A stretch of DNA of 64,000 bases, from the NCBI GenBank assembly GCA_963674685.2, contig CAXXWT010000005.1, forward strand, positions 595,450 through 659,449. Reading direction: 5' to 3'. The notes under the pieces are model-generated. The model searched no databases and was not told the origin of the DNA. It was given only the letters and a program-made list of their open reading frames with translations. The number at the start of each line of letters is the position of its first letter. Position 1 is the stretch's first letter. Position numbers and translations under genes: made by a program. The stretch comes from a bacterium. Lineage in GTDB: Bacteria; Lernaellota; Lernaellaia; JACKCT01. Below are positions 202-54,256 of the stretch, in pieces.

Positions 202-583
202 ATGATATTCGAAAACCTGATTTCGCGCCGATTCCAAAAAAGAATAAACCGCTTCGTAGCCCAGATGAATAATGATCATGGAGGTAAAAAGCTGCACGCT
301 GGTCGTTGATCGTCATGGTTTTTTTCCCGACGCCCCGACCACGCGAGGCGCCCGGCATCTCAGGGAATTGACCCGGCGCGCACAATCCGGCAAAAAGGCG
401 GCTGTTTTATTCTGCGTGCAGCGCAGCGACTGTGAAGCGGTTTCCCCGAACCGGGAAACGGATCCCGATTTCGCGCAGGCTTTGCAGGCCGCCGCGAGCG
501 CGGGCGTGGATATCCTGGCCGTGCGCTGCAACGTCGGCAAAAAAAGAATCGCCGTTTTTAACGGAATTCGGATTGAGTTGTGA
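202..583 (+). pseudogene. sfsA: sfsA (sugar fermentation stimulation protein A family) remnant with a large internal deletion and a frameshift
   Basis: Frame 1 (202-309) gives MIFENLISRRFQKRINRFVAQMNNDHG..., which matches the SfsA N-terminus (..RYKRFLADV...DG). Frame 2 (272-583) gives EVKSCTLVVDRHGFFPDAPTTRGARHLRELT...AVLFCVQRSD...GVDILAVRC, the SfsA C-terminal nuclease half. Roughly 110-120 central residues are absent and the two halves are out of frame. Confidence 0.6.
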
Positions 584-2376
584 AAAATAAATCGTTCTGG
601 AAATCATTTGGCGCGGATTTCGCGGTCGTCACAGTGCTGGCCGCGGCCGTCGTTTTCTTTTTGCCCTTCGGAGGCTTCGATTCATCCTCCCTGCCCTCGG
701 CGGATGACGACAGCGTTCGGGCATGGCTTGACGCCACGCTGTTCGACCAAACCATGCGCAGCGCGTTGGAAAGATACGGCGCGCTGCCGGGCCAGAATAT
801 TTATCTTAACGGCGGCATCCCCCTGGGCGCGCATCCCCTGGACGGCGCGTTGTCGCCCTTATCTTTGGCGCTTCACGACCTCGATGCGCTGACGGCGGTA
901 AAAATCAAAACGTTCCTGGCGGTATTCGCCGGGGCCGCGGCGCTTTTTCTGCTGGCCGGGCGGGCGGGCGCCGGCAGACTCGCATCCGCCACGGCGGCGC
1001 TGATTGTCCCCGCATCCGGTTTTGTTCAGCAGCGGATTATTACCGCGCCGCTTGACCTGCAGGTGCTTTTCGCCGCCTATGCCCTGGTCGTCGTTTTATA
1101 CGGATCGTGCGTCACGTCCTATTGCATCACCGCCGCCGTGCTGTTCGCCATCGCCGCCATGCAGTCCGGCTCCCTGATTTTCTTCGCGCCCGTCGCCCTG
1201 GTCTTGGCCGCTCTTATCCGGATCTACAGCGACGTCGAGGAGAAAAAAGACGCCGCCGCGTCGCTGGGTCTGATCCTGATGTTCGGATTGCTTTTTGCGA
1301 CCATCAAATGGCTGCCCGCCGTGGAGCTTTTGAAACTCAGATTCATGGAGTCGGCGGCGAAGAGTTTTCTCGTTCACCCGAACGTGGGATTGATCACGCG
1401 CGCCGGCCGGGGCATTTCCTTGTTGACGCCCGCCTTTGCCGGATGGCTCATCATTCCATTGTTGCTGGCGGCGGCGGCGGGATCGCGCATCGAAGGGCGG
1501 CGTGGAAAATTGTCGGCCCTGAGCCTGATTTTCCTTTTTATCACAATCCTGCCGCATGCTTCTTTGGACGTTAACGGCAAAGCGTCCGCGTGGATGGCGA
1601 TCAGATCCCTTTCCATGCCGCAATCCGTGGCGCCGGTTTTCGCCCTGATGACTCTGGGCGCCTTGTGCGCCCTGGCTTTTCACAAAATCCTCGAATGGAA
1701 AAAACCCGCCGGTTACGCTCTGACGGCGGTCTTTGCGGCGCTTCTGGCATTCGGCCATTTCAGCCGGGATATCCCCGACGGCGGTCAAATGCCCCAAAGC
1801 CCGGACCTGAGCCAATATCAAAATGCGCCGGACCGGGAGCCCGATTTTTTCCCGGTCCAGCTATACGATTCCAGGAAACACAAGGCGCTGACAAGTCATC
1901 ACCCGGCGCTTTTCGTCGCCCGACAGGCCGGCGTCGTCAACGGGCTGCAATTCTACGGCCCCAAAACCCGTGTTTCGCCGAAGATCAAAATTCGATCCGG
2001 CGCCGACAGAACCTGGAAAAACAAGCGATACAAAGGCGAGGTTTACTTCGGGCACAATCGCGGGAAAGTCCTGGATTACCAGGATCGCGGCAACCTCATG
2101 AAAGTATCGGTCAAGGCTTACAAGAAAGATTCCGACTTGATTTTCAACAGAAATTTCGATTCCGGCTGGAGCGCCGAAGGATACGAAACCGGACCTCTCA
2201 AAGGCCTTCTCGGCGTTCACCTGCCCGAACCGGGCGATTACGACATCACATTGGTTCATCGGCCGACCACAGCCCTGTATGGCGCATTTTTAAGCGGCGC
2301 CGCGGTATTTTTTGTCATGCTCTTTTCAGCCGTGGGATGGATCGCGCATAAGAGAAAAATGAAAGTTTGCAAGTGA
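580..2376 (+). CDS. polytopic integral membrane protein, function unknown
   Basis: 598-aa ORF with a GTG start overlapping the sfsA stop. It has many hydrophobic helices, a soluble C-proximal segment and a terminal TM. I recognised no catalytic motif. Confidence 0.6.
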   Translation: MKNKSFWKSFGADFAVVTVLAAAVVFFLPFGGFDSSSLPSADDDSVRAWLDATLFDQTMRSALERYGALPGQNIYLNGGIPLGAHPLDGALSPLSLALHDLDALTAVKIKTFLAVFAGAAALFLLAGRAGAGRLASATAALIVPASGFVQQRIITAPLDLQVLFAAYALVVVLYGSCVTSYCITAAVLFAIAAMQSGSLIFFAPVALVLAALIRIYSDVEEKKDAAASLGLILMFGLLFATIKWLPAVELLKLRFMESAAKSFLVHPNVGLITRAGRGISLLTPAFAGWLIIPLLLAAAAGSRIEGRRGKLSALSLIFLFITILPHASLDVNGKASAWMAIRSLSMPQSVAPVFALMTLGALCALAFHKILEWKKPAGYALTAVFAALLAFGHFSRDIPDGGQMPQSPDLSQYQNAPDREPDFFPVQLYDSRKHKALTSHHPALFVARQAGVVNGLQFYGPKTRVSPKIKIRSGADRTWKNKRYKGEVYFGHNRGKVLDYQDRGNLMKVSVKAYKKDSDLIFNRNFDSGWSAEGYETGPLKGLLGVHLPEPGDYDITLVHRPTTALYGAFLSGAAVFFVMLFSAVGWIAHKRKMKVCK

Positions 2377-3695: not shown

Positions 3696-5789
3696 ATGCC
3701 CGTTTATAAATACTTTATCAAATTCCGATCCGCCGGCCGTAAAAAGCGCTCGCTGATACTTGCGGCGGCGACTTTTTATCTTTTCCTGAAATGTTATTTA
3801 TTTGCCAACCAACTCGTTGTTCCGGTCATTTCCTCCCTCGACGGCCTTTATGACGATAAAAAGGCATACTGCCTGCTCTTTCTCCAGATTCTGGGATTGA
3901 TCGTCCTGGCCTGCCTGCTGGTATTTATCGTCAGCCTGGCGACGGATCGGCCAAAAGAACAGCCTTTGAAAAAAAATTCCTTGTTTCGACACCCGTTGAT
4001 GACTTTTTTCGCGACCACATCGATTGTTCTCATTGTTGTCGGTTTCATCCCGACGGTTATTGCCAAAGTATTTTTTGACTTCGAAAAAGCTTTCTATGAT
4101 CCGATATGGCCGAGATCGCAATATTTTCATTCCATTGCCCTATTGGCTTTTTGCGTGGGATTTTTTCGGGCGGATATCAAAGTCTCCCGCGACCGGGTTC
4201 ACTGGTGGACGGCGCCTTTTTTTATTTTGCCCTTCCGTTTTTTCAACAGCTTCCCGCTGTTATGGTGGAGTTTTCTTTCCGCCTGGCTCCCGTCGCGCTA
4301 TTGGACTGCCTGGCGCATCCCTTTGACCCTGGCGACATGTTTTTTACCATTGCTTTCCTATCCCGAGTCCCAACCGATCCGCGACACCGTGCCCGCTTAC
4401 AAGGGAAAAGGCATGGTCGAGTTGGAAAAATACGGCGACAATTGCTACCAGATTGTCCGCGTCCCCGGCAAATACGAGTTTTACATGGTATGCACGAGCA
4501 TGATCGGGCATTTTACAAAGGGCGCCAAAGACGTATGGACGATGAAAGACAAAGTTGATTTTAACGTTCATTTCAATGAAGCTTCTTATAATTTCACCGA
4601 TAATAAAGCCTATGTTTTCAATTATCGAAATTCGTCGGTTCATGTCATCGATCTGGAAAGCATGTCCCAAATCGATGCGATACGGGTTCCCAGAAAAATG
4701 TTCCCGACAAGCTCCGTTGATTTCCATCAACTCTATGACAGCGCATCAAAAAGACTTTTTATCGCCGATTCCGCGGGCTTGGTATTGATCATAGATGTCG
4801 ATCGGCCTGAAATTATCCGTTCACTCTATATTCACGGCCCGAACGGCCTTGTCTCGTTTCTTTTGGACGAAGAAAAAAATTGTTTAATCCTTCTATTTTC
4901 ATATTCCGTCGGCATTCTCGATCTGGAGCAGGATTCGATCGTCCGAACGCTCACATTTCGGCACAGAACCGGGGGGATGGATTATATTCCGGAACATGGA
5001 GAAATCTTCGTCAGCTTTCCGGAAATCATGAAAATCGATGCATTTAAGTTTGACGACCTGGAAGTCTTGCGAAGCTATCACGCTCCTTTTGGAGTACGAA
5101 CCATTTGCGCGGACCCGGCCCATGAAGTCCTGATATCAACGTCATTAACCGGCTCGACGGAAGTCAGAAACCTCCTGTCCGGCGAGCTGATCCGGCGAAA
5201 CAAAACTGTCGCCTGGGCGCATTGGATTGAATTATTTCCCGAGATGGGAAAGGCTGTGATCAGCGCCGGAGCCTCCAATACCAGGATATGGAACTACCTC
5301 CAATCTTCCGGCAAACTGCCCTGGAAAACCCGCATGGAGATTGATATTGAAAAATGGCTGAACTATGTGTTCCTCAATGTGCGGCCGTTCAAAAGCATCG
5401 TTGGTGAAATGGCCTCGAAAGATATCAGGAAGACCTCTATGGCCGGACACGATACCAGCATTTTTATGGTGGGACCTTCCGGGGTGGAACGCTCCGATGG
5501 CCAGGCAATATTACAGCTTGCCGGTTATAACGTTTCGGTCATGAATTACGAAGAATTTCTCAAACGAGAGCCCTTCGGGAACTCCGGCGACGTTTTCATC
5601 GTCGATATTGACGGCCCCGATTCGTTGCCGGAAAAAATTATCCGGTCAATCGAGAAAAACAATACCGACGCACGGATAGTAAACGCCACAAGGGATCCGA
5701 ATCGTTGCACCGGCAGCGGATACGATTGTTTCACGATCCCTTATAACGATCCCATAGAAAATTATGAGGATGTAATCTCCTTGAATTGA
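3696..5789 (+). CDS. membrane-anchored beta-propeller-like protein with a degenerate receiver-like C-terminus
   Basis: 697-aa ORF. The N-terminal ~230 aa contain several TM helices. The middle has repeated strand-rich units resembling YVTN/lactonase-type propellers. The C-terminal ~120 aa resemble a receiver fold but lack the N-terminal acidic pair (IFMVGPS...DVFIVDIDGPDS...ARIVNATRD). The gene is visibly AT-richer than its neighbours. Confidence 0.55.
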   Translation: MPVYKYFIKFRSAGRKKRSLILAAATFYLFLKCYLFANQLVVPVISSLDGLYDDKKAYCLLFLQILGLIVLACLLVFIVSLATDRPKEQPLKKNSLFRHPLMTFFATTSIVLIVVGFIPTVIAKVFFDFEKAFYDPIWPRSQYFHSIALLAFCVGFFRADIKVSRDRVHWWTAPFFILPFRFFNSFPLLWWSFLSAWLPSRYWTAWRIPLTLATCFLPLLSYPESQPIRDTVPAYKGKGMVELEKYGDNCYQIVRVPGKYEFYMVCTSMIGHFTKGAKDVWTMKDKVDFNVHFNEASYNFTDNKAYVFNYRNSSVHVIDLESMSQIDAIRVPRKMFPTSSVDFHQLYDSASKRLFIADSAGLVLIIDVDRPEIIRSLYIHGPNGLVSFLLDEEKNCLILLFSYSVGILDLEQDSIVRTLTFRHRTGGMDYIPEHGEIFVSFPEIMKIDAFKFDDLEVLRSYHAPFGVRTICADPAHEVLISTSLTGSTEVRNLLSGELIRRNKTVAWAHWIELFPEMGKAVISAGASNTRIWNYLQSSGKLPWKTRMEIDIEKWLNYVFLNVRPFKSIVGEMASKDIRKTSMAGHDTSIFMVGPSGVERSDGQAILQLAGYNVSVMNYEEFLKREPFGNSGDVFIVDIDGPDSLPEKIIRSIEKNNTDARIVNATRDPNRCTGSGYDCFTIPYNDPIENYEDVISLN

Positions 5790-5800
5790 CGACTTTCGGT

Positions 5801-8800
5801 TCAGCGCCACTTTTCAGGCAGCAAAAGCTCCGTCTCATCGACGCCCCGTCGGGCCAGATCCTCTCTCAACTTGTCGAACTGGCGGGTCAGGACATTGTCC
5901 CGTCCCAGACCGAAACGGTCAATCAAGGCAAGGGATTTTTGATAAGGCTCTAAAGCCTCATCGCTGCTGTCGCCGTCGAGGAGCAAATGTCGCCCGCGCA
6001 CGCTGTGATAGACCACGCTGACTTTGGGATACTCATCGCCGCGAAGCAGTTCCCACGCCTCGTCGAGTCTTTCCTGAGCGTCGGCGCTGCGATTCGCCGT
6101 CATCAGAGCCGCGGCGTATTGACAAAGATCGTAGGAGCGAAACTCCTTGTCGCCCACCTCCTCGTAGATCTTCATGGCCTGCTCGTAATGGACCAGCGCC
6201 TCGTCCGTTTCCCCCTGCCCCACAAGCAGCAGCGCCAGATTGCCCAGCACGATGGCTTCGCTGCGCCGGTTGCCCACTTCACGGTGGATTTCCAAAGCCT
6301 TGCGGTGGTGAATCATGGCCTTATCGGGCTGTTTCGTGTCCTCGTATAAAATCGCCAGATTCGCCAGAGAAATTCCTTCCGAGCGCCGGTCGCCGATTTC
6401 CCCGGCGATGGCCAAAGCCGCGTTGTAAAATTTCGGCGCCTCGTCGAGCCGCCCCAACTCGTGATTCAATCCGCCCAGGTTGTTGAGAACCTTTCCTTCC
6501 ATAACCCTGTCGCCGGCGGCGCGGTGCGCTTCCAACGATTTTTTGTAATAACCCAGGGCGTCGTCGGATTTTCCCTGGTCGTCATATAAAATGCCGATGC
6601 TGTTGAGAACGCGGGCTTCCATCCCGGCCTCGTCGAGCTTGTGAAAAACTTCCAGGGCCGCTTCGTGCATTTTCAGAGCTTCGTCCTTGTTGCCGCGCTC
6701 GTTGGTCAAAATGCCCTTGCTGTGCAGGACAAGCCCCATAAGGCGCAAATTGCCGGCCTTATGCAGATTTGCCAGGGCCTCTTCATAATATTGCTGCGCT
6801 TCGTCCACGCGTCCCATTTCGCGGCACAACATGCCGTAGCGGCCCTGCGCTTCGCCCCGCCTGCCTGCCAGGTGCGGCCTGGATGTGAGTTCCATCATCC
6901 GTTCGAGAGTTTCCCGGCGCTGTTGATTTTTACCCGTCAGCGCCTGCATGGCTTCCAGCAGGTCCAGAATCTCGTATCGTTTTGCGTCCCACTTCTCGTC
7001 TTCCGGAAATTCGCCGATCCATTCGTAAAGCCGCAAAGACCAGCTCAATCCCTCGTCATTCAAATAAAGGCGTCGGCATCTTTTCTGCGCCCTCATGCCC
7101 CATTCGACGGCTTTTTCACTCTTTTGCGCTTCGTGCCAATGCGTTGCGATGATGCCCGACAGTTCGTCGGCGCCTTCCGGGAACAGCTCTTCCAGAGCCT
7201 GGGCCACGCATCGGTGCAAAATGATGCGGTTGTGCCGAAGCAGCGTCTCATAAGCCGTATTGCGCGTGATGATATGTTTGAACTGGTAATTGTCCCCGGA
7301 ACTCATGAGCATGCGACGGATAAAATCGCGGGTTTCGAGTTCGGAAAGAATCACGTCGTTATTGCCATTCAGCGAAAGTTTGTGCGCGACGGTCTTGTAT
7401 ACGTCCAGTGCGAATTCCATGCCGATGACCGAGGCCCTTTGCAATCCCTGCCTTGGTTCGGCCTCCAGATGATCCATGCGGGAACGCGCCAGGGCCGCCA
7501 GACTTGAAGGAACCTGGAGTTTTCCAGGATCCTCGGCCAGCGCCCATCCTTTTTCGGTCATTTGCAGCGCGCCGGATTCGATCATGGACAACACCAGTTC
7601 TTCCAGGCAAAACGGATTGCCCTGCGCCTGTTTGAGAATGAAATCCTCCACCTCCCTTGCCTGGTCCGCCGCGAGAATCTTGGTCATCTCCCCGTACGTT
7701 TCGGCCAGATCCCGGTCGACCTCGTAAGTCGCCGCGATCATATTCCGAATAATGCCCCGGCAGGCCTGCTCGTCGATGGGCGCCAGTTCGATCTCCCGGC
7801 TCTCCACGTACGCCGCGTGGAGTCTGGGCGCCGGCGCGTTCTCCCCTTCTTTTTCCGGCCTGTAGAGCAAAAGGAAAAACAGCGGACGGGGCGTGTCGCA
7901 GTTTTCCACCAGAAACTCCAGAACCTCGGCGGAGGATGCGTCCATCCAATGCGTGTCTTCCAAAATAATCACAGGGGCCTTTTCGCAGTGCCCCAGAGCC
8001 CGAAAAATGTTGCGCAGAGCTATGAGGGTTTCCCGGTTTTTGGCCTGTTCATCCAGGCTCGTCAGGCGCGGATCGTCGTGCGCAATGGAAAGAAGCTCCG
8101 CCAGAAACGGGGTGGAGCTTTTGAGCGCATCTTTAACCTGCGTTTCTTTGACCTGACTCCCGATGGCGGAAAGCTTTTCCTCCAGCTTCGCCCGGGCGTT
8201 TTTATCCCCGATGCCGATGCCGAAATGCGAGCGCAAAAGCGTGGTCCATATCCAGAACGACGGCTGCGCATAGGATAAAGTGCGTCCGTGCAATACCGGC
8301 GGCGCGCTTTGATCCTCCGGGTGCGCCACGCTCATGAGGAATTCGTGCGTCAGCCGCGACTTCCCGATGCCCGCTTCCGCCTTGAGTCCCACGGCAATGT
8401 GCTTGGCGCCGCCGCGGCGGTTTTGCTCCGCGGCGCTTGCCCGCAAAGACCAGGCCCGACTGAGCACGCGCAGTTCTCTGTCGCGGCCGAGCATGGGCGA
8501 TTTGGCCACGCGGGCCGCGCGTTCCCAGCGCTCCTTTTGGCCCTGGCCGACGCCCGTGGGACGGAAAGTGTGAATCGGTTCGGACTTGCCCTTGACGGTT
8601 ATCTCGCCCAGGTCTTCCCAGGCAAACAGATCCCGGCACTGCTCCCTGACGTGCGCGGTGACCTGCACGGTGTCGATTTTCGCGGTGGATTCCATGCGGG
8701 AAGCGAGATTCACCGCGTCGCCGGTGACGGTCATGTGCCCGGAAGGGTCCGGCGCCACGGTGACCCAGCCGGCGTTGACGCCCACGCGGGCCGCCAGCGT

Positions 8801-9187
8801 TATGCCCTTGGGGCCGAGCATGCCGTTGACTTCGCCCAGCGTGTCGAGCATGCGCGTCGCGCAGGTCACGGCCCGTGCGCAGTCGTTCTCGGCGGCCTTT
8901 TGCGCGCCGAAAAGAGCCATGATCAGATCGCCCTCGTACTTGTCCACGTATCCGCCGTGTCCCTCGACCACGCGGGAAAGAGTCTGCATGACGCCGGTGG
9001 TGATGCGATGGACGATCTCGTGATCGAGTTTTTCCGACATGGCCGTAAAGCCGGAAAGGTCCATGAACAGGATCGCCACTTCGCGCCGTTCGCCTTCTTC
9101 GAGCTGCTCGGTTTTATCGGCGGAAGGAACGGCGATGTCGGCAAGCTTCGCCAGATCCTCTTTTATAAGCGACGACCAGTCCTGCAT
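5801..9187 (-). CDS. class III adenylate/guanylate cyclase domain fused to an AAA/STAND-type NTPase and TPR repeats
   Basis: The N-terminus carries cyclase motifs (VAILFMDLSGFT, KYEGDLIMALFGA, GDAVNLASRMES). A P-loop follows (KAEAGIGKSRL), and the long C-terminus has many TPR-like A..Y/EEAL repeats. Confidence 0.85.
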   Translation of the reverse strand: MQDWSSLIKEDLAKLADIAVPSADKTEQLEEGERREVAILFMDLSGFTAMSEKLDHEIVHRITTGVMQTLSRVVEGHGGYVDKYEGDLIMALFGAQKAAENDCARAVTCATRMLDTLGEVNGMLGPKGITLAARVGVNAGWVTVAPDPSGHMTVTGDAVNLASRMESTAKIDTVQVTAHVREQCRDLFAWEDLGEITVKGKSEPIHTFRPTGVGQGQKERWERAARVAKSPMLGRDRELRVLSRAWSLRASAAEQNRRGGAKHIAVGLKAEAGIGKSRLTHEFLMSVAHPEDQSAPPVLHGRTLSYAQPSFWIWTTLLRSHFGIGIGDKNARAKLEEKLSAIGSQVKETQVKDALKSSTPFLAELLSIAHDDPRLTSLDEQAKNRETLIALRNIFRALGHCEKAPVIILEDTHWMDASSAEVLEFLVENCDTPRPLFFLLLYRPEKEGENAPAPRLHAAYVESREIELAPIDEQACRGIIRNMIAATYEVDRDLAETYGEMTKILAADQAREVEDFILKQAQGNPFCLEELVLSMIESGALQMTEKGWALAEDPGKLQVPSSLAALARSRMDHLEAEPRQGLQRASVIGMEFALDVYKTVAHKLSLNGNNDVILSELETRDFIRRMLMSSGDNYQFKHIITRNTAYETLLRHNRIILHRCVAQALEELFPEGADELSGIIATHWHEAQKSEKAVEWGMRAQKRCRRLYLNDEGLSWSLRLYEWIGEFPEDEKWDAKRYEILDLLEAMQALTGKNQQRRETLERMMELTSRPHLAGRRGEAQGRYGMLCREMGRVDEAQQYYEEALANLHKAGNLRLMGLVLHSKGILTNERGNKDEALKMHEAALEVFHKLDEAGMEARVLNSIGILYDDQGKSDDALGYYKKSLEAHRAAGDRVMEGKVLNNLGGLNHELGRLDEAPKFYNAALAIAGEIGDRRSEGISLANLAILYEDTKQPDKAMIHHRKALEIHREVGNRRSEAIVLGNLALLLVGQGETDEALVHYEQAMKIYEEVGDKEFRSYDLCQYAAALMTANRSADAQERLDEAWELLRGDEYPKVSVVYHSVRGRHLLLDGDSSDEALEPYQKSLALIDRFGLGRDNVLTRQFDKLREDLARRGVDETELLLPEKWR

Positions 9188-9520: not shown

Positions 9521-11239
9521 ATGGCGCCCGCGGCAAATGCTCTGGAATATGGCGCGATTATAACCGGCCTGGGCGGCGGTTTGGCTCTATTCCTGTACGG
9601 TATGCGAAAGATGGCCGCATCGCTAAAGGTCGCCGCCGGCGGCGCCATGAAAAACATCCTGGCCCGGCTGACGTCCAACCGCTTTTCCGCCGCGCTGGCC
9701 GGCGCCATGGTCACCGCCGTCGTCCAATCCTCTTCGGTCACGACGGTCCTTGTCGTGGGTTTTATCAGCGCCGGGATTTTGGGGCTTTCACAATCCATCG
9801 GCGTGATCATCGGGGCCAACGTCGGCTGCACCGTCTCCGCGCAGATCATCGCTTTTAAAATCACGAAATATTCCCTGTTGCTGGTCGCCGTCGGCTTCAT
9901 TGTGGATATCACCGCAATGAATCGGAAAATCAAGCACTATGGGTCCATGATCATAGGTCTGGGCTTCGTGTTCTTCGGCATGGAACTCATGAGTCAGGCG
10001 ACCTATCCCCTGCGCTCGTATGCGCCGTTTTTGGAAATGCTGCAGTCGCTGAACAATCCGCTGGCGGCGGTTCTGGTCGGAACGGCGTTCACCGCGCTGG
10101 TGCAAAGCTCCGCGGCGACCATCGGCATCGTCATGGTTCTGGCCGCGCAGGGTTTGCTTTCACTGGAAGCCGGCATCGCCCTGGTGTTGGGCGCCAATAT
10201 CGGCACATGCATTACCGCGGTCATCTCCTCCATCGGACGTCCGACTCAGGCGGTCCGCGCCGCGGCGGCGCATGTGATTTTCAACGTGGCGGGTGTGGCC
10301 GGCGTATATTTCCTTATTCCCCAATTCACCGACCTTGTGCGCGAACTGTCGCCGGCGGCAAAAAACCTGACGGGGCTTGCCAAAATCGCCGAGGAAGCCC
10401 CCCGTCAGATCGCCAACGCGAATACCTTTTTCAACGCGGCCAATGCCGCGATTTTCATCTGGTTCACCGGCCCTCTTTCCTTATTTCTCGAGTGGATTTT
10501 CCCGGAAAGAAAAAAGGTCATGGGGCGGCGAATCGAGCCCGAGTTTCTGGACAAGATGTATTTCGATCAACCCGCGCTGGCGCTGGACCACGCCCGCATG
10601 GAGATCCTCAGACTCGGCAAACTCGTTCAGCGAATGTTCGACGATGCGCTTTCCGTCGTCACCAAAGGCGCCGAAGAAGATTTGCGTCGTTTGAGGGCGC
10701 AGGACGACAACGTGGACGCCCTGCACGAAGATATCGTCGCCTACCTGAGCGAGTTGGCTTCGAAAGACCTTATCGACCCGCAGCCGCAAAAGATCCACCA
10801 ATACGTCATGGCGGCGAACTATATTGAAAACATCGGAGACGTCATCGAAACAAGCATGTACAAGGAGGGGCAAAGCCGACTGTATCACCACCTGGTTTTA
10901 GATCAGGCGACCATGTTTTATATCGCGCCGGTTATCGACGAGGCCGGCGTCGCTTTCAAGCTGGCGCAGGAAGCCATTGAATCGCCGGACCCCCACCTCG
11001 AACAAGCCATCGTGAATTCCAAGGCCAGGCTCAGAAGCAATATCGACAATTGTCAGAGCCACATCGTCATGACCTGCGCAACGCGCAAAGACAATCTGGA
11101 CATGTTCAAACTGATCAGCGAAATCCTTACCAGCATGGAAAGAATCCACGCCCTTTCCAGGAGAATCGTCGCCGGCTTGCACGACGACGTCGATGGCGAT
11201 CAGCAATCGGAATTGCCGGAAATTCATGCGTCGCTTTAA
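9521..11239 (+). CDS. Na+/phosphate cotransporter family protein (NptA/YjbB-like) with a C-terminal PhoU-like domain
   Basis: Duplicated Na_Pi_cotrans motifs are present (LFLYGMRKM...QSSSVTTVLVVGF and QSSAATIGIVMVLA). The helical C-terminal domain resembles PhoU repeats. Confidence 0.85.
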   Translation: MAPAANALEYGAIITGLGGGLALFLYGMRKMAASLKVAAGGAMKNILARLTSNRFSAALAGAMVTAVVQSSSVTTVLVVGFISAGILGLSQSIGVIIGANVGCTVSAQIIAFKITKYSLLLVAVGFIVDITAMNRKIKHYGSMIIGLGFVFFGMELMSQATYPLRSYAPFLEMLQSLNNPLAAVLVGTAFTALVQSSAATIGIVMVLAAQGLLSLEAGIALVLGANIGTCITAVISSIGRPTQAVRAAAAHVIFNVAGVAGVYFLIPQFTDLVRELSPAAKNLTGLAKIAEEAPRQIANANTFFNAANAAIFIWFTGPLSLFLEWIFPERKKVMGRRIEPEFLDKMYFDQPALALDHARMEILRLGKLVQRMFDDALSVVTKGAEEDLRRLRAQDDNVDALHEDIVAYLSELASKDLIDPQPQKIHQYVMAANYIENIGDVIETSMYKEGQSRLYHHLVLDQATMFYIAPVIDEAGVAFKLAQEAIESPDPHLEQAIVNSKARLRSNIDNCQSHIVMTCATRKDNLDMFKLISEILTSMERIHALSRRIVAGLHDDVDGDQQSELPEIHASL

Positions 11240-11262: not shown

Positions 11263-11634
11263 GGTTCTTCGAGGATTACCGTACTTCATCATGAAACGAA
11301 GAAGAAAATTATTTTTCGTCCTTGACATTGCCTTTGGGATGGAATTTTTGCTCATAGGTTTTGAAAGGACGTTTTTGATCGACGTCGCGGGCAATCCCTT
11401 CGAGATAAAAGGATTGGAAGACATGTCGACAATTCGGTGATTTATTGGCGGCTTTATCGCGGTCTCCTGACGCCCAAATTGGGAAATGTCCTTTCAAAAC
11501 CTTAAATGACGGGCTTTTCCATCCCAAAGGAAATGTCAAGGATCGACGACCGCCCTTTTGGGCGGCGAAAAATAATTTTCTTCTTCGCAAAGTTGGAGAA
11601 GTGGGCGTTAAAGTACGGTAATCCTCGAAGAACC
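11263..11634. repeat. 372-bp composite imperfect palindrome (MITE-like element or large structured RNA)
   Basis: Four block pairs match as inverted repeats. 11263-11284 pairs with 11613-11634 (22/22). 11298-11318 pairs with 11566-11586 (21/21). 11319-11344 pairs with 11517-11542 (25/26). 11357-11370 pairs with 11488-11501 (14/14). There is also a central hairpin, caatcc...ggattg. Confidence 0.8.
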
Positions 11635-11881
11635 GAAAAAATGCTTTATTCAAATACGGCGGCATCCGGCGGAAATATCAAAAATGATTCATTTCTATAA
11701 ATTTTTCACTGTGGCCAGAAACATCTTTATTTCAAGCAACTTTGATGGTATCAGGATTAGGAATTTCGAGGGATTTGGCGATGACGCCGGATCATTTGAG
11801 AAAAATAATTAATGCTTCAAATAAAAATATCAATATCAGTTTTGCAGGTTTTTAGCATGACACATCGACTGGGGGACTGGT

Positions 11882-13912
11882 ATGGCATCGAAGAATATCG
11901 ACATCTTACTTGTAGAAGACGAACAGAAATTTCGTGAGAACACGCGCAAGCGCCTGGAAAGCAGGGGCTACAAGGTTCACGAGGTCGAGCGCGGCGACGA
12001 CGCCATCAAGCAGGTGCGCCTGTACGATTACGACGTCATTTTGCTCGACCTGAAAATGCCGGGGATGAGCGGCGAGGATACTCTCAAGGAAATCAAGAAA
12101 CACAGTCCGGCAAGTCAGGTCATCATTCTCACCGGCCACGCCTCCTTCCACTCAGCCACGGCGACCGGAAGGCTCGACGCCTATTCATACATTGAAAAAC
12201 CCGTCGAGTTCGAACGCCTCCTCAAGGAAATCGAGGCCGCCAAGCGCCAGAAGGTCAACGTGCTCATACGCGACGACGAGATCGTCGAGAAAAAACCGAA
12301 CCTCTGGACGCGCATGGTGGGCGTCAGCAATTACCGGCCTCTGTTTATTCTTATCGGCTTGTTGATTTTCTTGCTCATCAGCTTTTTGCCCGCACCCAAT
12401 TCCATGGTAAAACTGCTGGGGACGCAAAAAACCGGCGAAATGGGAGACTCCTTAAGCGGCTATGCGGAATATAAAAGCATGTTGAACGGGCAAAACATCG
12501 CCGACTACTACGGGAAATATACGAAATTCCTTAAAGGCTCCGACGGCGGATACCCCGTGGAATTCGCGGTTTTCAAATGCAAAGTCATGGTGGCGGTGCT
12601 GGTTCTCGCCGCTTTCTTCTGGGCGACGGGAGCGATTCCCATCGGATTCACCGCCATTCTCGTCGGCGTCATGATGTACTGGTTCAAGATCATGCCGCCG
12701 GAGATGGTCGCCAAATCCTTTGCGAAGGATTCGGTGCTTTTTATCTTCGGCGTGCTGGCGCTTTCCGTGGGTATCGCCAAAACCGGCCTGGATAAAAGAA
12801 TCGGCGTCCTTTTGCTGGGAATGTCCTCGAACTTGCGGCGCTTTGTTTTTCTCTTCTGTCCCCTGCTGGCCGTCAGCGCATCATTCGTGTCCGAGCACGC
12901 CCTGGTGGCGTTCATCGCGCCGATTATGGTGGCGGTCTATGCCGTGTCCATACGATCGGCGGGAATCAAGGAAGACAAAAACCTCGCTTTGATGCTGATC
13001 TTGATCGTGACCTTCGTCGGAAATCTCGGCGGACCGGGATCGCCCAGCGCCGGGGGACGCAACGCCGTGATGCTGGGCATCCTCAAGGATTACGGCAGCG
13101 CCCCATCGTATCTGGAATGGATGAAATACGGACTTCCCTTCGTGCCCGTCGCGGCGGCGTCCGTCGGTCTTTATTTCTATCTCATGTTCAACAGGAAAAT
13201 TAAAGTCAAGAACCTGAACGTGGCCGAAATCGTGAAAAAGGAATCGGAAAGACTCGGCCCCATGCTCCTGCAGGAATACCTGATGGCGGGCATATTGCTT
13301 CTGGTAATCCTGGGCTGGGTATTTTTGTCGAATACTTACGGAATGGCCGGTCCGGTTCTTTTGGGTCTTGTCCTGATGTCCATGCTGCGCATCACGCGCT
13401 GGAACGATGTCAGCCACATCAACTGGGACGTGGTGGCCCTGTATGCCGCGGCCACGGCCATGGGAAAAGGCCTTGCGGTCACCGGCGCCGGTCTGTGGAT
13501 AGCAAACGGCTTCATTGCGATTCTGCCCGATTCCATGACAAGCGGAACCGGCCTGGCCATGGCCGTCAGCCTGATGACGGGCGTTTTGACCAACTTCATG
13601 AGCGACGGCGCCACGGTCTCCGCCATCGGCCCGATCACAACGCCCATGGCGATCATCTCCGGCACGCATCCCTGGATGATCGGCTTCGCCACCGCGTTCG
13701 CGTCGTCCTTCGCCCACGCCCTGATCATCGGCACGCCCAACAACGCCATCGTGTACGCCGTCGCCAAAGACCCGGATACGGGCAAACAACTCATCAGCCT
13801 GGGAGATTTCGCCAAACACGGCGGCGTCGCCTTTTTGATATCCATGGCCGTGCTTTGGTTCTGGCTGTTCCTTGTTTACTGGCCCTGGATCGGTTTCCCG
13901 GCAGTCGGTTAA
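11882..13912 (+). CDS. response-regulator receiver domain fused to an SLC13/DASS-ArsB/NhaD-superfamily anion permease
   Basis: One uninterrupted 676-aa ORF. Residues 1-~125 form a complete REC domain (E12/D13, D56 in DVILLDLKMPG, ILTGH, IEKP). The rest is a polytopic permease with DASS-like motifs (ATGAIPIGFTAIL, GSPSAGGRNAV, IIGTPNNAIVY). Confidence 0.8.
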   Translation: MASKNIDILLVEDEQKFRENTRKRLESRGYKVHEVERGDDAIKQVRLYDYDVILLDLKMPGMSGEDTLKEIKKHSPASQVIILTGHASFHSATATGRLDAYSYIEKPVEFERLLKEIEAAKRQKVNVLIRDDEIVEKKPNLWTRMVGVSNYRPLFILIGLLIFLLISFLPAPNSMVKLLGTQKTGEMGDSLSGYAEYKSMLNGQNIADYYGKYTKFLKGSDGGYPVEFAVFKCKVMVAVLVLAAFFWATGAIPIGFTAILVGVMMYWFKIMPPEMVAKSFAKDSVLFIFGVLALSVGIAKTGLDKRIGVLLLGMSSNLRRFVFLFCPLLAVSASFVSEHALVAFIAPIMVAVYAVSIRSAGIKEDKNLALMLILIVTFVGNLGGPGSPSAGGRNAVMLGILKDYGSAPSYLEWMKYGLPFVPVAAASVGLYFYLMFNRKIKVKNLNVAEIVKKESERLGPMLLQEYLMAGILLLVILGWVFLSNTYGMAGPVLLGLVLMSMLRITRWNDVSHINWDVVALYAAATAMGKGLAVTGAGLWIANGFIAILPDSMTSGTGLAMAVSLMTGVLTNFMSDGATVSAIGPITTPMAIISGTHPWMIGFATAFASSFAHALIIGTPNNAIVYAVAKDPDTGKQLISLGDFAKHGGVAFLISMAVLWFWLFLVYWPWIGFPAVG

Positions 13913-13938
13913 ACGGATACACACGAAGGGAGTTTGAT

Positions 13939-14424
13939 ATGGATGAAAAAATACGCCTGCTCTTTGTCGACGACGAGGAGAAATTCCTGGAGGCGACGGC
14001 CAAAAGGCTTCGGGTCCGCAACATCGATGTGCAAGCATTCACCCGGGGAGCCGACGCTCTGGAGGCGACGAAAAATCAAAAATTCGACGTGGCTTTGCTC
14101 GATCTGAAAATGCCCGGCATGGACGGCGAGGAGCTTCTGCACAAAATCAAGGAAATGCACCCGCGGATGGAAGTCGTCATCCTCACCGGACACGGCTCCA
14201 TCGATTCGGCCAAGAGGCTGACCCGGGACGGCGCCTACGAATACTTGCAAAAGCCCTGCGAACTGGACGAACTGATTTCCGTTTTGTCCCAGGCATACGC
14301 CAGGCGCATCGTTTCCGCGAAGGAGAGCAAAGCCCGGCGGGTGCAGGAGCTTCTGGACAAGGCCACGGGCTACAGCCCCATCGCCCTGCTGGAAGAACTG
14401 CGTAAGATCGACAAAGAAAGTTGA
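13939..14424 (+). CDS. stand-alone response-regulator receiver protein (no DNA-binding output)
   Basis: MDEKIRLLFVDDEEKF...VALLDLKMPGMDGEE...VVILTGHGS...YEYLQKPCE, with GAAGGGAG upstream. The tracked ORF (13495) was trimmed to this internal ATG because its upstream part overlaps the permease gene. Confidence 0.85.
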   Translation: MDEKIRLLFVDDEEKFLEATAKRLRVRNIDVQAFTRGADALEATKNQKFDVALLDLKMPGMDGEELLHKIKEMHPRMEVVILTGHGSIDSAKRLTRDGAYEYLQKPCELDELISVLSQAYARRIVSAKESKARRVQELLDKATGYSPIALLEELRKIDKES

Positions 14425-14475
14425 GCGAAGAACCGCCGGATTATTCTTGACCGAATTCAAAATGCGGGGATCTTC

Positions 14476-16197
14476 ATGAAAGAGCCGGTCGAAGCCTCAA
14501 AAGCAGTTCCGGAAGACATTTTCAAAGCTTTCAAGCCGCACTCCAAATCCCTCACCGGCCTGCGTAACCGCGTATTGGGACGACTGCTTTTCGTCGCGCT
14601 GATCCCCCTTCTCATTTTGGCCCTCTATCTTCGTTACCAGTTCATCACAACGCTCGAGTCCCGTTCGGAGATTTTTCTGCAAGCCATCGCGAAAGGCCGC
14701 CAGGGCGCGGTGGATCAGATGATCGCCGGAAAAATGGCCGCCCTCAAAAGCCTCGCGAAATTGGTCGATCCCGCGGCTCCGGCGTCGGATAAGGAGATGA
14801 AAGGTTTTCTGGCTCTTTTGCAGGGGATGGACGAGTCGATTCTCGACCTGGGTCTTTTCGATGCGCTGGGAAATCACATTCGTTACGCCGGGCCTTTTCA
14901 GTTTCTCGAAGGGAAAAACTACAAGGATGAAAACTGGTTTATGAGTCTGACGCAGTCCGAGTCGCCATTTTTCATCAGCGACGTTTACCTCGGTTATCGA
15001 AACGATCCTCACTTCATGATCGCCTATCGCATGGAATCCGGCGACGCTCCGTGGTTTTTGCGCATCACCATAAGCCCCGCGAAATTCAACCAACTCGTCA
15101 ACGACGTGCAGGTGATCGAGGGCGTCAGCGCGCTGATCGTCAACCGGGAGGCGGTCTGCCAGTGCGCGCCGGAAAACATCTGCCGGACCATGTCGAAAAC
15201 TCCCGTGTCCCCGCAAATGAACGCCGGCAGCGGCGCCACGCGGATCCACGTCGACAATGACGACTATCTGCTGGCGTGGTCGCGGCTGAAATACGTCAAC
15301 TGGACTCTTATAGTCAGACAAAATCTCGCCGTGGCCAATGCGCCGATCAGGGCCGCCAGCCGCGTGGTGCTGATCATTTTGATCTTCGCGATTTTGTTCA
15401 TCATCATTTCATCCGTTCTGGCCACGCGCAGCCTGATGAACCGTTACGCGCGCGTGGAAAAAGATAGAACGCAGCTCATCGACCAGCTTTTTCAGGCAGG
15501 CAAGCTGTCCACCATGGGCGAGATGGCGGCGGGCGTGGCGCATGAGATCAACAACCCCCTTGCGGTGATCCTCTCGGAACTGGGCGTGATGGAGGACATC
15601 CTCGATCCGACGTTGAGCGAGGAGTTCGACCGGGAGGAATTTTCAAAGCGCATCGAATCGGCGAAACAGGAAATCCGGCGCTGCCGCAACATCACGCACA
15701 AACTCCTGGGCCTGTCTCGGCACAGCGAATCGGTCATCGACAAACACGACGTCAACGAAGTCGTGACTGAAACCGTGGGATTGATCAAAAAGGAACTGAG
15801 CTTCGAAAACATCCAGCTTCTCGTGGATGCCGATCCGGCGATTCCCGTCATCCGCACCGACGGTGAAAAAATCAAACAAGTCGCGCTGAACATGATTCGC
15901 AACGCGAAAGACGCCATCGGAAAAGACGGAAAAATCACCGTCAGCACGCATAACGAGGCGGATTACGTGAGCATCATCATTACCGATACGGGTTCGGGCA
16001 TCAGCGAAAGGAATCTTCAAAAAATATTCATGCCGTTTTTCACCACCAAAGAGGTCGGCAAAGGCACGGGCCTGGGCCTTTCCATCAGCTACGGCATCAT
16101 CACCTCCCTGGGCGGCAAGATCAACGTCACCAGCAAGGTGGGCGAAGGAACGTCTTTCGAAATCATTCTGCCCAAAAAGAACGTCATGACGGACTAG
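14476..16197 (+). CDS. sensor histidine kinase with a Cache-like periplasmic domain
   Basis: Two TM helices flank a ~240-aa extracytoplasmic domain. The H-box is AAGVAHEINNPLAVI and the HATPase_c N/G boxes are present (NMIRNAKDAI, DTGSGI, GKGTGLGLSISY). Confidence 0.85.
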   Translation: MKEPVEASKAVPEDIFKAFKPHSKSLTGLRNRVLGRLLFVALIPLLILALYLRYQFITTLESRSEIFLQAIAKGRQGAVDQMIAGKMAALKSLAKLVDPAAPASDKEMKGFLALLQGMDESILDLGLFDALGNHIRYAGPFQFLEGKNYKDENWFMSLTQSESPFFISDVYLGYRNDPHFMIAYRMESGDAPWFLRITISPAKFNQLVNDVQVIEGVSALIVNREAVCQCAPENICRTMSKTPVSPQMNAGSGATRIHVDNDDYLLAWSRLKYVNWTLIVRQNLAVANAPIRAASRVVLIILIFAILFIIISSVLATRSLMNRYARVEKDRTQLIDQLFQAGKLSTMGEMAAGVAHEINNPLAVILSELGVMEDILDPTLSEEFDREEFSKRIESAKQEIRRCRNITHKLLGLSRHSESVIDKHDVNEVVTETVGLIKKELSFENIQLLVDADPAIPVIRTDGEKIKQVALNMIRNAKDAIGKDGKITVSTHNEADYVSIIITDTGSGISERNLQKIFMPFFTTKEVGKGTGLGLSISYGIITSLGGKINVTSKVGEGTSFEIILPKKNVMTD

Positions 16198-16392: not shown

Positions 16393-16534
16393 TTGCGTGG
16401 AAGCGTTGCTCGTAAGCCCGAAGGGCGAAAGTTAATAGACAGTATGGACCGACCGGCTCCCTTTCGCAGCATCGTAGGTTAAGCTGCGAAAAGGATTTTC
16501 ATTAGCTCAGAGCTACATACGAAAGGAGCCGATC

Positions 16535-17647
16535 ATGTCCGAGAGTCAATATATCACGAGCGTAGGTATGGATGTCCACAAAAAGAGCATCAACGTTGCC
16601 GTCGTTCTTCCCAATTCGAAAAAAATCGACGCGGAATGGCAGATCGCCAACGAGCCTCGCGCCATCAAAAAGCTCGTAAAGAAGGTTAAGCGCCTGGCGC
16701 CCGGCGAGGCCGTGGCTTGTTATGAAGCCGGTCCCTGCGGTTACGCCTTGAAAAGGAAACTGGACGCTCTGGGTCTTCCGTGCGTGGTGATCGCGCCTTC
16801 CCTGATTCCCGTCAAACCCGGGGAGCGAATCAAGACGGATCGCCGCGACGCTCGGAAGCTGGCCTCCCTTTTCATGGCGGGCCTGCTGACCGAGGTGCAT
16901 CCTCCCGATCCCGCAGAGGAGTCGACGCGGGATCTGACCCGAGCCCGGGAGGACACGAAACAGGATCAGATGCGCGCCCGGCATCGCCTGACCAACATGC
17001 TTCTTCGCCGGGGCATTATCTATACCGAAACCAGGCATTGGACGAAGAAACACTACGTCTGGCTTCGGCAGGTGCGCTTTGAGTCCGATCGGTCGCAACG
17101 GGTTTTCGAACATTATCTGCTGTCTTTGGAGCAGATCGAGGAGCGTCTGGCGGAGTTGGACGCCGCCATCACAGAAGCGGCCCAAAGCGAAGAATACGCC
17201 GAGAAGGCGGGTTGGCTGGGCTGCCTTCGCGGGGTGAGCACGGTGACGGCCATGACGATCCTGGCGGAGCTTCACGATTTTCGGCGTTTTCAAAGCGCGC
17301 CGGAATTGATGTGTTATCTTGGAATGACGCCTTCCGAATATTCGAGCGGCGAAAGCTCGCATCGCGGCGGCATCACCAAGGCGGGCAACGCGCACGTCCG
17401 TCGCCTGCTGATGGTGGCGGCCAAGCATTACCGTCACCGGCCGGCGGTGAGCCTGCATCTGAGAAAGCGTCGGGCGGGTCAGCCGAAGGCGGTGATCGCC
17501 ATCGCGGACCGTGCGGGAGCCCGTTTGCATCGGCGCTATTACAAACTCCGTGAGGGATCGGGAAAACATCCCAACGTGGCGACGGCGGCGGTGGCGCGTG
17601 AACTGGCGGGTTTCATCTGGGCGGTGATGCGTCATGAGGAAATTTAG
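16535..17647 (+). CDS. IS110-family DEDD transposase/recombinase
   Basis: N-terminal RuvC-like motifs are present (VGMDVHKKS, CYEAGPCGY, KTDRRDARKLA). The C-terminal Transposase_20-like region follows (GVSTVTAMTILAELHDFRRF, LMCYLGMTPSEYSSGES, GITKAGNAHVRRLL). AGGAGCC lies upstream. Confidence 0.9.
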   Translation: MSESQYITSVGMDVHKKSINVAVVLPNSKKIDAEWQIANEPRAIKKLVKKVKRLAPGEAVACYEAGPCGYALKRKLDALGLPCVVIAPSLIPVKPGERIKTDRRDARKLASLFMAGLLTEVHPPDPAEESTRDLTRAREDTKQDQMRARHRLTNMLLRRGIIYTETRHWTKKHYVWLRQVRFESDRSQRVFEHYLLSLEQIEERLAELDAAITEAAQSEEYAEKAGWLGCLRGVSTVTAMTILAELHDFRRFQSAPELMCYLGMTPSEYSSGESSHRGGITKAGNAHVRRLLMVAAKHYRHRPAVSLHLRKRRAGQPKAVIAIADRAGARLHRRYYKLREGSGKHPNVATAAVARELAGFIWAVMRHEEI

Positions 17648-37175: not shown

Positions 37176-37283
37176 TCAAACTCCATGGGCTCACGGTGCG
37201 TTATTATTTACACGCCGCGGAATCGGCGCGTCAAGAACGTTTCAGAAGCATTCATAAATACCGGGCCGATGATTGTCTGAGGG

Positions 37284-39341: not shown

Positions 39342-39473
39342 TAGGAAATCCTTTGATGCTTATCCTGGAAAAACCTATCATTTCTCAGCCCAGATGGCTA
39401 TTTAGATAAATCCATAATTCTTCTTAAGCTAAAAAATCGCCTCTTCAACAAATGGAGATCGCAAAACGAGAGG

Positions 39474-54083: not shown

Positions 54084-54256
54084 GTTCCATGCATAAACTG
54101 ACATTTCAATTCGCCACAGCCGCGAAATGACCCCATCTTTCCTTTGAGGCAATAAGTTTGCCTGCTTGTTATCGGCCCAGGGTAATCATAGCTTGCTTGA
54201 TACCGCCGTACCGAAAGAGTATTGTCTGTTTCGTCGCAATATTGGCGAGGCTTTTT

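Follow-up and report, generated by a model that had tools for sequence, protein, structure and literature searches.

A receiver domain fused to a DASS-fold permease within a conserved two-component module: a candidate for phosphorylation-gated transport

Response regulators control transcription, enzymes, motors, and proteolysis. In a 64,000-nucleotide (nt) stretch of a Lernaellota genome (contig CAXXWT010000005.1 of assembly GCA_963674685.2; hereafter, the window), positions 11882-16197 encode a receiver domain joined in a single reading frame to a permease of the SLC13/DASS type, followed by a free receiver (REC2) and a sensor histidine kinase. The question raised by this locus, already posed in an earlier note made from the sequence, is whether its phosphorelay may act on transport itself rather than on transcription. 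We find that the fusion is real and ancient, and that the three genes are one two-component module co-inherited across metagenome-assembled genomes (MAGs) labelled with about ten phyla. The fused receiver may gate the permease directly, and this reading is weighed below together with its rivals.

The fusion gene occupies positions 11882-13912 of the forward strand and, as the earlier note had it, is one uninterrupted open reading frame (ORF), encoding 676 residues plus a stop codon. Pfam assigned Response_reg (PF00072) to residues 8-117 (E = 1.9e-27; 96.1 bits versus a cutoff of 30.2) and Na_sulph_symp (PF00939) to residues 234-670 (E = 1.9e-35; 123.2 bits versus a gathering cutoff of 27), and CitMHS was also matched (E = 5.9e-27). 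The AlphaFold2 model of the protein, which was built from a 118-sequence alignment (pLDDT 85.4, pTM 0.78), runs from the N to the C terminus through a (beta-alpha)5 receiver, its helix alpha5, an amphipathic helix, a juxtamembrane motif, the first transmembrane segment (TM1), an extracytoplasmic loop, and the DASS core.

A protein 100% identical to this product (P0001) is present in a public assembly. Among the 120 best database relatives listed (55-100% identity; about 675-700 residues), 117 combine PF00072 with PF00939, and the remaining three are shorter entries. When one genome per GTDB species was scanned, 289 genomes were found to encode a relative of the fusion; the best 80 loci were examined, and receiver and permease lie in a single reading frame in all of them (80/80). 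These loci come from MAGs labelled with about ten phyla, including Myxococcota, Acidobacteriota, Desulfobacterales, Zixibacteria, Ignavibacteria, Calditrichaeota, Planctomycetota, and others. The earlier note had allowed for a frameshift or missed stop between the two parts and for orthologues that are always split, and both are excluded. An assembly or annotation artefact joining two separate genes was rejected and is left with a negligible probability, because both the fusion, a single ORF in every one of these independent genomes or MAGs and in nearly all of the best listed relatives, and the length of its linker are conserved across species.

The receiver domain covers residues 1-125 (11882-12256, forward strand). 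Its catalytic residues lie where they had been placed before, with an acidic pocket of E12/D13/E14, the phospho-acceptor D56 in LLDLKMPG (nt 12047-12049), T84 in ILTGH, and K106 in IEKP. The site is complete and conserved, D13, E14, D56, T84, and K106 being invariant in 118 homologues (55-100% identity). The order of secondary-structure elements in the AlphaFold2 models fits the (beta-alpha)5 fold for the fused receiver and REC2 alike, and Foldseek matched both to receiver structures at a target-normalised TM-score of about 0.9. In a profile search, the closest solved structures to the fused receiver were receivers of NtrC1 and the NtrC family, and its alpha5 is prolonged to residue 130 in the model.

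Between receiver and permease lies a coupling segment, K106-P153 (12197-12340, forward strand), made up of the long alpha5, a short amphipathic helix (LWTRMV), and a juxtamembrane stretch (GVSNYRP) that is conserved as G-x-x-N-x-R-P. The two connector helices span residues 110-130 and 141-146 in the fusion model. The connector is exactly 48 residues long in 118 of 118 homologues, whereas the adjoining periplasmic loop ranges between 59 and 74. Because the one length is invariant while the other varies, the connector can be read as a mechanical signalling linker, of which such a fixed length would be typical.

The permease part (residues 153-676; 12338-13909, forward strand) was matched by Foldseek to NaS1, NaCT, and VcINDY with E-values of 1e-14 to 1e-16 and target-normalised TM-scores of 0.75-0.82, and further matches of the fusion model were yeast Pho90 and ArsB. 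In the model, TM1 (residues 153-172) leads into a conserved loop on the extracytoplasmic side (about residues 178-224). The SNT motifs at the hairpin tips of DASS proteins bind Na+ and substrate. Both of these signatures are replaced here according to a hidden Markov model alignment to human NaCT: S337-E338-H339 (SEH; nt 12890-12898, forward strand) is aligned on SNT-1 and S574-D575-G576 (SDG; nt 13601-13609, forward strand) on SNV/SNT-2, and both replacements are invariant in the 118 sequences. The motifs of loops L5ab (GGPGSPSAGGRNA, residues 383-395; nt 13028-13066, forward strand) and L10ab (IIGTPNNAI, residues 615-623; nt 13724-13750, forward strand), to which attention had been drawn before, are nearly invariant and are retained relative to human NaCT in the profile alignment. 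The curated cutoff of the NCBIfam model TIGR00785 ('dass') was missed by the fusion (161.8 versus 198.6 bits). The SLC13/DASS label therefore holds by fold and by Pfam, but the curated cutoff and the SNT signature do not support it; the permease is a DASS fold of a divergent subclade (Marietou clade C) without a characterised member. Because its hairpin-tip and L5ab/L10ab motifs are invariant, the domain is under strong constraint and looks like a working unit of binding and transport.

The free receiver REC2, a single-domain response regulator of 161 residues (13939-14424, forward strand), starts 26 nt past the stop codon of the fusion and is preceded by a ribosome-binding site, GAAGGGAG. Pfam matched Response_reg with E = 1.4e-27 (96.5 bits versus a cutoff of 30.2), and the catalytic residues (D11/D12, D55, T83, and K105) are invariant in 66 homologues. 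In its AlphaFold2 model (pLDDT 92), a 32-residue alpha5 (residues 109-140) precedes a final helix (residues 147-159); the C-terminal helix motif is conserved as G-x-SP-x3-L-x2-LR-x-(L/I)D, and the best full-length structural matches in Foldseek were the receiver-plus-linker structures of NtrC1 and DctD. A REC2 homologue is found at most 400 nt 3' of the fusion in 70 of the 75 loci with enough flanking sequence, with the tail included in 69, and its size is highly uniform across loci (mode, 162 residues). The paralogous stand-alone receiver described in the earlier note is thus present directly downstream of the fusion, but its description as an orphan does not stand, since REC2 is conserved as a partner, with a fixed size (about 162 residues) and a conserved C-terminal helix motif. 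It is essentially the fused receiver and linker minus the permease.

The sensor histidine kinase (573 residues; 14476-16197, forward strand) starts 51 nt past REC2 with its own ribosome-binding site. It consists of TM1, a periplasmic dCache domain (about residues 63-280), TM2 (residues 297-317), DHp, and HATPase_c, and Pfam recognised HisKA (42.8 bits) and HATPase_c (85.1 bits). The Cache-type assignment made earlier was borne out, with dCache_1 scoring below threshold on the window kinase (33.8 bits versus a cutoff of 45) and on record for an orthologue of 59% identity. H356 lies within HEINNP (nt 15541-15558), and the N, G1, and G2 boxes are also present (NAKDA, DTGSGI, and GKGTGLGL); the HEINNP H-box presumably fits the bifunctional kinase/phosphatase type. 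The nearest NCBIfam models are AtoS/ZraS. We infer from the gene arrangement that the fused receiver is phosphorylated by this adjacent kinase.

To assess conservation of the neighbourhood, the 80 loci were searched by tblastn with the window proteins. In 76 of them the fusion is adjoined by a kinase whose sensor domain is homologous, and this, with REC2 in 70 of 75, makes the triad of fused receiver-permease, free receiver, and Cache kinase a conserved module. The prevailing gene order is kinase, fusion, REC2; in the window, and likewise in L001/L082 (83% identity), its closest relative, the order is fusion, REC2, kinase. Unbiased clustering of neighbouring ORFs returned four recurrent families, a CBS-pair protein in addition to DASS, kinase, and REC2. 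The CBS-pair protein is encoded in about 54 of the 80 loci, mostly between kinase and fusion, but neither in the window nor in its nearest clade. The two intergenic gaps of the triad (26 and 51 nt) contain no terminator-like signal beyond chance, and scans for sigma70 promoters and terminators performed at chance and left the transcription unit undefined. A sigma54 -24/-12 promoter had no match upstream of the fusion, such matches across the window being fewer than the chance expectation, and the region 5' of the fusion gave Rfam matches to a riboswitch or another RNA at chance level only. Larger clusters were observed at L004 (10653-18419) and L081 (13147-21249), which include a tandem pair of NtrC-type sigma54 activators, another Cache kinase, a double receiver (REC-REC), and a second, unfused DASS gene; this DASS paralogue has 615-641 residues, with an N-terminal extension of about 170 residues in which Pfam found no domain.

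The N-terminal part of the permease proved to be variable in the wider subclade. The permease part alone was searched against 1.84 billion cluster representatives, and the matches were scanned with Pfam. Receiver fusions occur in several clusters of less than 50% identity (P0125, P0133, P0135, and P0162, the last at 30% identity), a Usp domain takes the receiver position in P0129 (47% identity), and no N-terminal domain is present in P0128, P0130, and P0134 (42-44% identity). The receiver of P0127 is degenerate, with the acidic pair DD changed to NC and the phospho-acceptor D56 to E, and that of P0135 has the pair changed to ES. The distant relative P0273 retains SNT. As a separate observation, another permease relative, P0233 (881 residues), carries a radical-SAM domain at its N terminus. 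Unfused and Usp forms nest among the receiver fusions in a simple neighbour-joining tree of the permease domains, drawn without bootstraps; there is a hint that the receiver fusion was ancestral in the subclade and was later lost or swapped. The N-terminal position thus behaves as a modular regulatory slot that can hold a receiver, a degenerate receiver, Usp, or nothing, and this modularity, together with the CBS-pair proteins in the operon, suggests post-translational control of the permease.

The fusion architecture is already annotated in databases, and the family is uncharacterised. The orthologue of Desulfobacula toluolica Tol2 (CCK80087.1/K0NN26, 691 residues) bears the UniProt name "response regulator modulated sodium/sulfate symporter". 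Its neighbourhood encodes a REC-dCache kinase, the fusion, a 162-residue receiver, a dCache kinase, a receiver, a 615-residue DASS protein, a REC-CBS protein, two CBS proteins, and a Usp protein, and corresponds to what has been described in Desulfobacteraceae as the "DASS-type sulfate transporter gene cluster" (PMC11887813). Of these genes, the window encodes DASS, the kinase, and the receiver as a core, and CBS, Usp, and second DASS genes are absent from it. The authors of that study proposed that the Cache kinases of the cluster sense sulfate and that the CBS proteins provide a second level of control, and they modelled the cluster as transcriptional control of DASS genes, the fused receiver being unmentioned. 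Judging from its length and genome position, the 691-residue orthologue is probably TOL2_19410, which was placed in DASS group Cii (lengths up to 691 residues) and detected in membrane fractions (PMC5840216). In the same study, members of Cii in D. autotrophicum were induced below 100 uM sulfate, again with no mention of a receiver; HRM2_38300 and HRM2_38230 of that species are putatively linked to the fusion through their grouping with TOL2_19410. The upstream kinase of D. toluolica (L081, 7911-9956) also deserves a remark, as Response_reg is listed before dCache, HisKA, and HATPase_c, and this domain list suggests an N-terminal receiver, an unusual order for a hybrid kinase. The searched literature yielded no experimental work on a receiver-gated DASS/SLC13 transporter or on receiver-transporter fusions. 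The earlier note, which was aware of no characterised receiver-gated SLC13 transporter, was right in this respect, with the addition that the architecture itself had been annotated for D. toluolica.

Sulfate has been assigned to these clusters from expression and proteomics (PMC11887813, PMC5840216). Because the orthologous clusters of sulfate reducers are treated as sulfate-uptake systems and Cii members respond to sulfate limitation, our best guess for the substrate, and a weak one, is an inorganic oxyanion, for instance sulfate, that is transported together with H+ or Na+. The assignment is weakened because the family occurs in many lineages from which sulfate reduction is not known and because sulfur genes are lacking in the window; no sulfur, dicarboxylate, or otherwise informative metabolism genes were found among the other genes of the window.

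DASS permeases are dimeric elevator-type transporters that dimerise via a scaffold containing TM1, the transport domain having two re-entrant hairpins. Of the explanations considered, direct gating has the most support; in our judgement, there is about an even chance that the fused receiver gates transport directly through its phosphorylation and that the transporter is the main output of the module. The kinase would bind a periplasmic ligand, autophosphorylate on H356, and pass the phosphate to D56 of the fused receiver and D55 of REC2. Because dimerisation occurs through the scaffold with TM1, the fused receivers, hanging from this segment, would come to lie side by side under the dimer axis. 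Phosphorylation would then rearrange the receiver dimer (alpha4-beta5-alpha5 together with an alpha5 coiled coil), as in NtrC1/DctD, and either the rigid linker would relay this change to the scaffold or the receivers would enter or leave the path taken by the moving transport domain. Transport would thereby be switched within seconds, without new gene expression. REC2 would most likely tune the switch by competing for the phosphate, as a sink, or by forming heterodimers with the fused receiver, and the Usp swap and CBS partners would fit a transporter that is placed under several post-translational inputs. Both the gating of transport and the sink or competitor role of REC2 are what we infer from indirect support, namely the invariant linker length, the modularity of receiver, Usp, or nothing at the N terminus, and the CBS partners.

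Helix alpha1 of receivers is the helix that docks on kinases. Across 42 non-redundant loci, agreement between REC2 and the fused receiver above that of shuffled pairs concentrates in alpha1 (positions 16, 24, and 27), as measured by a statistic that ignores phylogeny. Because the covariation of the paralogues concentrates in this helix, it is consistent with the two receivers sharing one kinase. Taken as a whole, the proposal that this would be the first His-Asp phosphorelay with a secondary transporter as its response regulator, in which an NtrC1-type receiver dimer gates a DASS permease and REC2 is its competitor or heterodimer partner, and which has been widespread yet overlooked, is held more tentatively, at somewhat below an even chance.

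Several points weigh against direct gating. Besides the neglect of phylogeny in the covariation test, the fusion model is that of a monomer, and, because SNT has been replaced by SEH and SDG, the transport chemistry, coupling ion, and substrate are not readable from VcINDY or SLC13. A further point concerns the claim that the locus has no DNA-binding regulator. This claim stands for the window, in which no sigma54/AAA+ regulator gene was found over 64 kb and no DNA-binding output domain among 37 ORFs scanned with Pfam, and for the closest relative (L001/L082), but it does not extend to the whole family, as NtrC-type sigma54 activators are encoded in about 17 of the 80 loci, including L004 and L006 (65-66% identity), where they directly follow REC2. 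The kinase may accordingly have a transcriptional branch, possibly via an unlinked partner in this genome. If transcription were the real output, the kinase would mainly serve such an unlinked NtrC-type activator, both receivers would be accessory sinks or feedback elements, and the fused one would fine-tune or localise the permease. The kinase is indeed closest to AtoS/ZraS, which are partners of NtrC-family regulators, both receivers belong to the NtrC class, and a model of the cluster as transcriptional control of DASS genes has been put forward (PMC11887813). We nevertheless regard this explanation as distinctly unlikely, as no regulator of this kind lies nearby in about 80% of the loci, the window and its closest relative among them, the region upstream of the fusion has no sigma54 -24/-12 match, and the covalent link of receiver and permease by a linker of invariant length would be left unexplained.

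The permease could also be the input of the system. As a transceptor, it would let its occupancy or transport cycle set the access of the kinase to the fused receiver, which would be a flux-dependent sink or scaffold, and REC2 would be the true, diffusible output. REC2 is conserved as strongly as the fusion, its terminal motif could be a docking helix, both receivers appear to share a kinase-docking surface, and a second, flux-type input would make sense for a kinase that already has a periplasmic Cache sensor. Transporters co-sense in DctA/DcuB-DcuS, in CbrA with its SLC5 domain, and in the Kuenenia Amt-kinase fusion. In these known cases, however, the transporter-like module is linked to the kinase and not to a receiver; Usp and CBS regulators in or next to the N-terminal slot typify transporters under regulation and not sensors, every motif relevant to transport is invariant, and the conserved neighbourhood shows no evident target of REC2. 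On balance, a permease acting as the input is unlikely. Finally, the fused receiver might work without phosphorylation, as a dimerisation or assembly domain or as a pseudo-receiver that binds a ligand or partner, in which case the kinase would serve REC2 alone. The degenerate receivers of the divergent fusions P0127 and P0135 indicate that the domain can work without the canonical acidic pocket. Five catalytic residues that are invariant over the 118 sequences would, however, be hard to explain otherwise, which makes this explanation very unlikely for the fusion family itself.

Elsewhere in the window, a Na/Pi cotransporter with a PhoU domain (9521-11239; Pfam, NCBIfam) lies upstream of the fusion, as the earlier note had reported, but it is not a conserved neighbour (0/80 loci). 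Further upstream, a 1128-residue protein (5801-9187, reverse strand) was observed to combine an adenylate/guanylate cyclase catalytic domain with an AAA_16 (STAND-type) ATPase and many TPR repeats. The cotransporter and the cyclase were considered as functional partners of the module and rejected, since neither occurs in any of the 80 related loci. Between the Na/Pi gene and the fusion, a long imperfect palindrome of about 370 nt (11263-11634) has four nested arm pairs of 19-26 nt (95-100% complementary) and is overlain by a minus-strand ORF of 118 residues (11309-11665). No further copy of its arm occurs in the window, and Rfam gave no match beyond chance; the palindrome could represent a remnant resembling a miniature inverted-repeat transposable element or a large regulatory hairpin. 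Directly 3' of the kinase gene lies an IS110-family transposase gene (DEDD_Tnp_IS110 and Transposase_20; 16535-17647, forward strand) with a mirror-image antisense ORF (16502-17635), and it may explain the rearranged, minimal gene order and the absence of the additional genes of L004 and L006.

Four paralogous PF01663 type I phosphodiesterase/nucleotide pyrophosphatase genes are located at 50439-51830 (reverse strand), 52770-54083, 54158-56365, and 56116-58362 (forward strand), the last two ORFs sharing about 250 nt; taken with the Na/Pi-PhoU transporter, the cluster hints at phosphate scavenging. The histidine operon, in the region of highest G+C in the window (about 62%), contains a 424-residue triple fusion of His_biosynth (HisA/F-type), PRA-CH, and PRA-PH (42851-44125, reverse strand). 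Five large ORFs (456, 685, 683, 598, and 697 residues), at 35805-41525 (reverse strand), 580-2376 (forward strand), and 3696-5789 (forward strand), have no Pfam match at E <= 1e-5.

No demonstration that a secondary transporter is controlled by a covalently attached receiver was found in the searched literature. The fusion gene is a new member of an annotated but uncharacterised family, and the proposed mechanism would be new both as an output of two-component systems and as a form of DASS regulation. If it is true, it adds a class of fast, post-translational outputs to two-component signalling and occurs in at least 289 species genomes, whose labels cover about ten phyla. It would also offer a natural switchable elevator transporter for mechanistic study of DASS/SLC13 proteins, which are of medical interest (NaCT, NaDC, and NaS1), and in sulfate reducers the module would control the first step of sulfate respiration. 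The proposal further bears on the switching between high- and low-affinity sulfate uptake in these organisms, for which the orthologous clusters are the current candidates. The three-gene version in the window is convenient for reconstitution because it lacks the CBS and Usp proteins and the second transporter.

Among annotated loci, that of D. toluolica (K0NN26) is alike in having a REC and DASS fusion of 57% identity followed by a 162-residue receiver and flanked by dCache kinases. The window triad is the minimal core of that cluster, which is much larger, with a second, unfused DASS gene, more kinases and receivers, and REC-CBS, CBS, and Usp genes, and in which the gene order is kinase, fusion, REC2 as opposed to fusion, REC2, kinase in the window. 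A single kinase likewise has two paralogous receivers, of which one is a free single domain, in the CheY1/CheY2 sink of Sinorhizobium meliloti and in the antagonistic PixG/PixH pair of Synechocystis (PMC11181946), although the kinases there are of the chemotaxis type (CheA), the outputs are a motor or pilus, and the sink role of REC2 here is hypothetical. The permease shares its fold, Na_sulph_symp, and the L5ab GxxN and L10ab TPxN motifs with VcINDY, LaINDY, human NaCT, NaDC1/3, and NaS1, and differs from SLC13/DASS proteins of known structure in its identity of about 20%, the change from SNT to SEH/SDG, the extra conserved periplasmic loop, and the N-terminal receiver.

The best sequence and fold matches to both receivers, including the long alpha5 extension, are NtrC1 of Aquifex aeolicus and DctD of S. 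meliloti. Receivers of NtrC1 and DctD act via a phosphorylation-dependent change in dimer geometry that is relayed through a linker. Their output is an AAA+ sigma54-activator domain, whereas here the linker enters TM1 of the permease in the fusion or ends in a short helix in REC2. Yeast Pho90 (and also Pho87 and Pho91) resembles the fusion in being a dimeric elevator transporter of the DASS fold that carries a regulatory domain in the cytosol at its N terminus, and its SPX domain regulates transport; Pho90 thus provides a structural precedent for an N-terminal regulatory domain on the DASS fold, although the domain is SPX, which responds to inositol pyrophosphate, and not a receiver, the protein is eukaryotic, and the identity over the fold alignment is about 18%. 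Transporters are physically tied to a His-Asp phosphorelay in the CbrA SLC5-kinase, Ks-Amt5, DctA/DcuB-DcuS, and BceAB-BceS, in each case as an input to the kinase. In those systems the transporter feeds the kinase, whereas in the module described here it is joined to the receiver, on the output side of the relay.

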